Positions 32,195-32,960 of a stretch of DNA of 64,000 bases are shown piece after piece. Location: positions 40,424,001 to 40,488,000 of the forward strand of contig OX597836.1 of NCBI GenBank assembly GCA_951406725.2, written 5' to 3'. Below the pieces are notes generated by a model, which was given only the letters and a program-made list of their open reading frames with translations, ran no database searches and was not told the DNA's origin. This DNA is from Octopus vulgaris (taxonomy: Eukaryota). Position numbers and translations under genes: made by a program. Each line of letters starts with the position of its first letter. Position 1 is the first letter of the stretch.

Positions 32195-32960
32195 CATTAT
32201 ATAATTAGGGCTTAGTAAAATAAATTACTTTGCCACATACTGAACTTAGTAGAAATAGCAGCCAAAAAAAATTTTTCTTAACATTTCTACTACTTAAAGA
32301 AAATTTCTCTCAGATAATGTTTACTCCAGACAGCTCACGAAGGTTTGGGGGTAAATACAGAAAAATATCACAAGTACATAGATCGTTTGAGTACGTCAAC
32401 GTTTCAAGATTAGCCAAATAAAATCAGCATTTCTTTCGTCAGCTCAAAATTTCTTAATTTGGATTTGGAAACACTAAAAAGAAGGAACTTTACCTATCAG
32501 CGAACTTGTCGCTTCAGATGAACCACTCCAACTAAACAGTGTCAACAAATTCAAAATGCGCAGGCGTAAAATTCTGCACTCCCCATTCCACCCACGTGGT
32601 CTATCTAGCAAACATTATATTTTAACCGCGAGAACCGAGGCAGTATGACCGAGAGAAATGCATTATAATATCAACAATTGAGGGTAAAATTAATTAATTA
32701 ATCAATTTCACCAAGTGTTCAGTATGTAAAAGGACCATTTAAGGCGAATTCAAAATATTACATTATATAATTAGGGCTTAGTAAAATAAATTACTTTGCC
32801 ACATACTGAACTTAGTAGAAATAGCAGCCAAAAAAAATTTTTTCTTAGCATTTCTACTACTTAAAGCAAATTTCTCTCAGATAATGTTTACTCCAGACAG
32901 CTCACGAAGGTTTGGGGGTAAATACAGAAAAATATCACAAGTACATAGATCGTTTGAGTA
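32195..32960 (-). mobile_element. Partial-tandem hammerhead element (retrozyme-like or Penelope pLTR-like), ~566-bp unit, about 1.35 copies
   Basis: Direct repeat 32195-32393 and 32761-32960. (TA)n on both sides. Confidence 0.82.
32386..32448 (-). ncRNA. Type I hammerhead ribozyme motif
   Basis: TTTGAG-CTGACGA-AAGA..GCTGA..TTGGC..TCTT-GAAA-CGT-TG-ACG-TA-CTCAAA. All three stems pair and the core is intact. Confidence 0.85.

Follow-up and report, generated by a model that had tools for sequence, protein, structure and literature searches.

A young 567-nt hammerhead retrozyme family in Octopus vulgaris with insertion ends that point to Penelope-like mobilisation

Both the retrozyme class and its link to Penelope-like elements (PLEs) are already published (PMC7229834; bioRxiv 10.64898/2026.07.22.740005). 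The preprint gives retrozyme units of 51–972 bp, with at most seven units in most families, and cleavage in vitro for one of nine tested elements (bioRxiv 10.64898/2026.07.22.740005). PLE insertions are described as carrying a tail at one end only and an inverted 5′ copy, with a bias for (TA)n (PMC8557442), and partial tandems with an inverted 5′ copy are also reported in PMC3846280. The tail arises from two internal reverse transcriptase (RT) start sites, both target strands are cut and extended, and hammerhead cleavage is dispensable in vitro (PMC11167929). No cephalopod retrozyme was found in the literature searched, although the supplements of PMC8557442, PMC7229834 (hammerhead lists) and PMC13282606 (repeat library) and the tables of the preprint may contain the family described here.

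Anatomy of the insertion and its family

The locus lies in a 64,000-nt stretch of the Octopus vulgaris genome (the window). Judged by its sequence, the element, whose self-cleavage is predicted, is a metazoan non-LTR retrozyme, a class already known. It has a type I hammerhead with a conserved core and three stems, head-to-tail units with one hammerhead each and no coding capacity, and it is dispersed, multicopy and low in GC, without LTR structure. The original prediction of a non-coding tandem hammerhead element is thus borne out, with a unit of 567 nt. The features are as follows.

32195..32958, minus strand: whole insertion, one 567-nt unit plus ~197 nt, a single arm with an A-type 3′ end
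32392..32958, minus strand: unit monomer, cut site to cut site, 567 nt, 34% GC, non-coding
32195..32391, minus strand: second round of unit positions 1 to ~197, with 32195 as fixed site A
32959..33012, no strand: (TA)n microsatellite on the 5′ side of the element
32165..32194, no strand: (TA)n microsatellite on the 3′ side of the element, the target
32826..32849, minus strand: A7/T8 hairpin (unit ~110–133), the strongest 5′-truncation hotspot of the family
32669..32811, minus strand: folded module (unit ~148–290), holding sites A (~32762) and B (~32669)
32386..32448, minus strand: predicted type I hammerhead (core motifs and covariation), the only complete one at the locus
32448–32443 with 32391–32386, minus strand: stem I of the predicted hammerhead, followed by the core CUGACGA (32442–32436), the extended stem II (32435–32406), GAAA and a short self-complementary stem III
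32392/32391, minus strand: predicted cut, between the A of GUA and C

Unit position 1 is the C right after the predicted cut, at 32958. The minus strand exits the microsatellite at CTCAAACGATC, the C of which is 32958, and the element ends at 32195 (±2), after which (TA)n resumes. The layout originally described, i.e. 567 nt from 32958 to the cut at 32392/32391 and ~197 nt again with (TA)n on both sides, is exact, and the TA preceding 32958 is indeed common to element and microsatellite, so that the 5′ boundary is ambiguous by these two bases. The two rounds differ by two substitutions in the first 118 nt and by a 1-nt indel in a T run, past which the repeat spacing of 567 between the two cut-site positions becomes 566. 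The absence of an ORF also stands, as no stop-to-stop frame on the sense strand exceeds 46 codons, even when read round a circle; the RT and GIY-YIG ORF of an autonomous PLE is absent from the 567-nt element, and a tRNA scan returned none. The duplication at the locus lies well outside what chance would give. A 5′ end that falls at the cut site, taken alone at one locus, does not, since ~4 of 449 passes are expected to stop no more than 3 nt from an arbitrary position at the truncation rate of the family, 0.3% per nt.

The hammerhead was identified from its core motifs and confirmed by covariation. Rfam gave no match in the whole window at the gathering threshold, and at E≤10 the hammerhead was not scored within 32000–33200. 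Stem I is UUUGAG/CUCAAA, and the four pairs of stem II are lengthened by an internal loop and a further four pairs. When five families are compared, both sides have changed in 11 of 18 pairs, which is reached in 0 of 500 shuffles, albeit with few sequences and with a structure derived from those same sequences; within the family, variation is 0.8% in the core and stems vs 1.9% elsewhere. The active monomer fold lies 2.5 kcal/mol above the minimum and makes up 0.1% of the ensemble, whereas two copies can pair via stem III with a computed duplex energy of −12.8 kcal/mol. A dimer mode of cleavage is reported for axolotl retrozymes (PMC7229834), and the octopus hammerhead is likewise predicted to cut slowly, as a dimer. 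With its one complete hammerhead, the insertion could not release a monomer by double cleavage; in the first sample of copies (below), at least two hammerheads are present in 8 of 110 arms, each unit of the element carrying one.

The family is young, with hundreds of insertions that are 98–99% identical. Exhaustive exact pattern searches of the 2.8-Gb genome return 393 exact read-through junctions and 449 matches of unit 21–42, whereas a similarity search with the element gives 1704 candidates, the best 40 of which were scored and yield 77 matches at 95–100%. Median divergence from the majority base is 1.3%, and the copies are dispersed over many chromosomes, at 34% GC and without LTR structure. 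The wrap past one full unit is general rather than peculiar to this locus, the junction being crossed by 87 of 112 arms in the first sample (twice by 12 and three times by one), and longer tandem arrays are present, the longest found having 3.5 units. A sister family of 562 nt is ~85% identical; further relatives stand at 75–77%, and families of 594 and 644 nt are more distant. These families keep the same plan, and a walk to diverged relatives led only to the non-coding hammerhead families of 562, 594 and 644 nt. No run recorded as RNA is listed as holding the unit. It is covered by assembled contigs from eight sequencing runs (seven guessed to be RNA, one of unknown kind), part of which extend across the junction; as genomic tandems yield the same joint, these contigs carry no information on expression or circles.

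Several other elements share the window. The clan includes another young retrozyme family, with a 644-nt unit, which is represented at 38850–39490 by a plus-strand arm (38910–39490) and an inverted arm (38850–38910); its hammerhead has a long AT-rich stem II, its arrays reach ~4 units, and its copies, among 1437 candidates, are 98–99% identical. At 4680–5150, a head-to-head pair of a different hammerhead element sits in (TA)n with a tail at one end only and with two complete type I hammerheads (4866–4918, minus; 4995–5047, plus). A short inverted fragment of this latter family (32001–32170) shares the TA tract of the 567-nt element and adjoins its 3′ end. A motif scan finds another hammerhead-like motif at 57650–57738 (minus), and one family of 184-nt tandem repeats occurs at 8562–9176, 20515–20924 and 37599–37965. 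Broken frames at 34760–35789 (minus) resemble a Tc1/mariner transposase in their motifs.

Insertion ends and the Penelope link

The ends of the copies were read in two samples. The first, designed to be unbiased, comprises every listed exact match of unit 21–42 (the first 100 of 449; C1, C2 and part of C3), giving 69 loci, and the replicate comprises further loci among the first 100 of 188 matches of the C43 variant, giving 41 loci, with 14 previously seen. Two pieces of an older family (L137), the duplicate locus L094 and the extra pieces of the complex loci L013 and L101 were left out of the counts. The 3′ ends of the 180 arms in these 109 loci fall almost entirely at two fixed places in the unit, site A (190–212; 83 arms) and site B (285–297; 80 arms), with 17 elsewhere, such that a tail of ~92 nt separates A (~197) from B (~290). 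The 5′ side, in contrast, is truncated variably, at ~0.3% per nt. More than one arm is present in 69 of the 109 loci, and of the 53 two-arm loci in which both ends are classifiable, 52 are A+B, one is B+B and none is A+A. Flanks of the sampled copies place them in (TA)n, indicating a target preference.

At 20 polymorphic sites, haplotype discordance is 3.7% between rounds of one arm and 0.4% between twin arms, compared with 31% between loci (L133 left out). Recurrent round-specific differences, as expected from heterogeneous master arrays, were seen in 0 of 40. In L138 (1380–2618), one arm changes haplotype between rounds, with six differences, four of them at polymorphic sites; this represents either a mixed multimer or a template switch.

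Both sites lie in the module at unit 148–290, whose fold has a z of −4.6 and in which 6 of 35 consensus pairs covary among nine relatives. We infer that this module is the recognition and priming element and that the end of the studied copy at 32195, fixed site A, is where reverse transcription started. The main signature, missed in the original prediction, is the combination of two fixed 3′ start sites with head-to-head arms, which suggests a Penelope-like enzyme. Taken together, the two fixed 3′ ends with an optional tail, the variable 5′ truncation, the partial tandems, the head-to-head inverted copies and a tail at one end only (52 of 53 A+B) reproduce the published footprint of endonuclease-bearing (EN+) PLEs, making Penelope-like machinery likely. 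We are rather confident that the insertion is a non-autonomous retrozyme, a copy of a young non-coding repeat of 567 nt that carries a hammerhead and has two fixed 3′ ends in (TA)n, and that a Penelope-like RT/GIY-YIG enzyme copied it into the genome by reverse transcription.

The genome does hold suitable enzymes: it has many intact 781-aa frames that combine RT and GIY-YIG, contain a C-x4-C-xx-C linker and terminate, like the element, in (TA)n. From the linker motif alone (as in PMC8557442), these PLEs would be classed as Neptune-type. An upstream frame of 330–480 aa without a Pfam match precedes the RT frame in the 781-aa family. The 3′ end of this family has a hammerhead-like fold (L183:5330–5460; L157:680–800, minus) with the core UUGAUAA instead of CUGANGA, possibly a U3–A8 compensatory variant. 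A partner was sought with blastn and a profile of eight related ends at 50 GIY-YIG loci (30 + 20) drawn from 148 listed of 6136 candidates, a search confined to these GIY-YIG loci. No autonomous PLE with the A/B module as its own end was found among these 50 loci, some of which overlap, or beside any other locus. Matches to the hammerhead element near GIY-YIG loci were rejected as PLE ends, being separate insertions.

The cut site and the template

The original prediction took the 5′ boundary of this copy as evidence that the ribozyme had cut in vivo and defined the template, with 5′ ends expected to pile up at CTCAAA. The top 40 similarity matches, for which the query is biased towards copies with an end close to position 1, were left out of this test; the pooled set comprises 143 arms and 167 passes (L133 dropped as unclear; three fold-back pairs counted once). 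The pile-up is absent: 155 of the 167 passes (~93%) read through the cut site, and two end at −2..+1 vs 1.5 expected, so that a start at the cut site, as in the studied copy, is unusual within the family. Matches without G in the three bases before the TA of the junction number seven, compared with the 393 exact read-through junctions, and consist of the studied locus, a 200-nt fragment after a microsatellite, an inversion joint, three internal variants and one ambiguous case; only two of these seven ACG-less matches abut a microsatellite. The cut site does not, therefore, define the 5′ end of the element.

A modest excess of ends is nevertheless seen just 3′ of the cut site. In the first sample, five arms end at −2..+5 (2.1 expected, P 0.065). 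This excess was not replicated, as the same pre-set window holds one end in the replicate (1.3 expected), whereas −2..+10 holds eight (2.35 expected). In the pooled set, 12 passes end at −2..+10 vs 5.8 expected (P 0.016), or 11 (P 0.035) if L003 is placed at 12, where it fits better; this window was chosen partly after seeing the data, and in a free window scan an equally extreme window occurs in 79% of simulations, so that the excess is not significant by that measure. The flanks hold one end each, at 11–20 (5.0 expected) and at 554–565 (5.6 expected). A stronger hotspot at 116–127 corresponds to the A7/T8 hairpin. In the 562-nt family (all 45 pattern matches, 33 loci), 4 of 19 unconditioned passes end in the cut-site window vs 0.7 expected (P 0.005); a hand count in the best-scoring loci of the 644-nt family gives 0 of ~14 passes. 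Later-round passes, which have the geometry of the studied locus, stop at the cut-site window in 5–6 of 35 cases vs 1.3 expected (5–6 of 49 with the third family). The modest excess leaves some weak support for in vivo cleavage in a minority of templates, of which a few per cent of the total probably ended at the cut site through cleavage. As a quantitative test of the cut site as boundary, the counts are thus largely negative, with a slight positive remainder.

For the studied copy itself, we lean slightly towards a 5′ end that records an RNA cut. Cleavage competes with real alternatives, namely pausing of the RT at the 3′ border of the hammerhead and microhomology nearby, and an ordinary truncation, in which the RT fell off at random or paused at that border and the TA microhomology fixed the junction with no cleavage recorded, is a serious contender at somewhat less than even chance. 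The 93% read-through and the match of the TA before the cut site to the target argue for it, and among ten sites where (TA)4 directly precedes unit 21, the studied locus alone starts at 1, whereas four start at 12, with TAT as microhomology. The GATC palindrome at 8–11 yields fold-backs, ~4 such ends are to be expected genome-wide from chance, and PMC11167929 reports no reads that end at the cut site of an anole PLE. Truncation of this kind does not readily account for ends that spread over −2..+9 with nearly none just upstream or at 11–20, a local contrast with P about 0.001 in a partly post hoc window, nor for the same cluster in the 562-nt sister family, whose sequence differs there.

The same ends bear on the form of the template. 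The model behind the original prediction, in which cut-to-cut monomers circularise and are copied by rolling-circle reverse transcription, is doubtful as the sole route. Precise junctions (all 393 exact), arrays of up to 3.5 units, one haplotype per insertion without recurrent round-specific differences and the demonstrated circles of coral, mussel and axolotl retrozymes (PMC7229834) are what it would produce, and without a regenerating step arrays would presumably shrink every generation. A closed circle, however, offers no end at the cut site once that site has been crossed for the first time, and yet the enrichment of stops is strongest in the later rounds; arm L138 also changes haplotype between rounds. 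The circle signature, a stop after one full turn of the unit, was looked for in A arms (1 vs 1.3 expected) and B arms (4 vs 1.6, P 0.08) and not found. An end where the cut site is reached for the second time fits a linear, partly cut multimer better, so that a circle is not needed at this locus; partly cut linear multimers also explain the later-round stops, in agreement with the use of unprocessed RNA as the main substrate in vitro (PMC11167929). Linear cut monomers, with the RT jumping from a 5′ end to the next 3′ end and failed jumps leaving ends at +1..+10, would account for the arrays, for a small excess at every round and for L138; we regard them as improbable, given that nearly all junctions are exact, with no bases gained or lost, and that intermolecular jumps would mix haplotypes more often than is seen. 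A satellite or local duplication that arose at the DNA level, its hammerhead-like motif being incidental, might be suggested by the lack of an Rfam match and by a minimum-energy monomer fold that differs from the active one. It is contradicted by the junction-crossing arms, the A/B arm ends and the covariation of the hammerhead across families, and the spread over many chromosomes, the fixed 3′ but variable 5′ ends and the lower variation of the core and stems leave it a negligible chance. The most likely template is a mixture of circle and linear multimer.

With such a mixture, the cycle would run as follows. Source copies with at least two units would be transcribed, and most of the RNA would stay continuous across the cut site owing to the predicted slow, dimer-type cutting, as uncut multimer and probably as ligated circle too. 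A PLE enzyme would bind the folded module at unit 148–290 and nick (TA)n, and copying would start internally at site A (~197) or site B (~290) and run back across junctions, until the enzyme drops off at ~0.3% per nt and microhomology serves to join the end. Priming would take place on both target strands in ~60% of loci, at A on one and at B on the other, giving head-to-head arms. At the studied locus, synthesis would have set out from A (32195), passed through one intact junction and stopped at 32958. We tentatively propose, as a reading with slightly less than even odds, that the ends of the insertions preserve the Penelope cycle like a fossil record. In this reading, a conserved, covarying ~140-nt fold sets two starts ~92 nt apart, each target strand is primed strictly at its own site from RNA of a single haplotype, and the templates that stop at the cut site amount to a few per cent, with a larger share in later rounds. 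If true, this would provide genomic evidence for germ-line hammerhead cutting of retrozyme RNA and for partly cut linear multimers, not only circles, as templates.

Comparison with known retroelements

The plant LTR retrozymes resemble the octopus element in their hammerhead-bounded non-coding unit of similar size (PMC4918200). They have type III hammerheads, LTRs, PBS/PPT and 4-bp target duplications (PMC7229834; bioRxiv 10.64898/2026.07.22.740005), whereas the 567-nt element has type I topology, with no LTRs or 4-bp target duplications seen. A plant-type LTR retrozyme is ruled out by the type I topology.

Metazoan non-LTR retrozymes, as described by Cervera and de la Pena in 2020 (PMC7229834), consist, like the octopus family, of tandem repeats that are non-coding and low in GC and have a single type I hammerhead in every unit. 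A proposed mobilisation by PLEs is likewise common to both, and those of the axolotl also share a palindromic stem III suited to dimer cleavage. Their units in coral, mussel and axolotl are ~220–390 nt, compared with 567 nt here. Unlike those retrozymes, the 567-nt family consists mostly of dispersed insertions of 1–2 units with inverted arms in (TA)n, and is here known from DNA alone. The animal retrozymes of the preprint (Li, Clavereau and Pollet; bioRxiv 10.64898/2026.07.22.740005) agree in class and in proposed PLE dependence; no mollusc appears among the species groups described there. The preprint argues from co-occurrence and pLTR homology, whereas the argument here is drawn from insertion ends, and the 50 GIY-YIG loci showed no coding PLE with a homologous pLTR.

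With the EN+ PLEs Neptune, Hydra and Poseidon (PMC8557442, PMC3846280, PMC11167929), the family has in common partial tandems, 5′ truncation, an inverted 5′ copy and an optional tail at one end, as well as two internal RT start sites, (TA)n targets and a hammerhead in the terminal repeat. Unlike these PLEs, it has no ORF, and the whole unit behaves like a pLTR. The 30–40 nt described for PLE tails, vs ~92 nt in the 567-nt family, counts against the PLE reading. A short folded RNA module is likely to suffice for mobilisation and offers a ready substrate for PLE assays in vitro. Relative to these described systems, what the family adds is numbers, i.e. hundreds of near-identical insertions with countable ends, and these counts bear on the role of the hammerhead in the PLE/retrozyme cycle and on the choice between circle and linear multimer as template.
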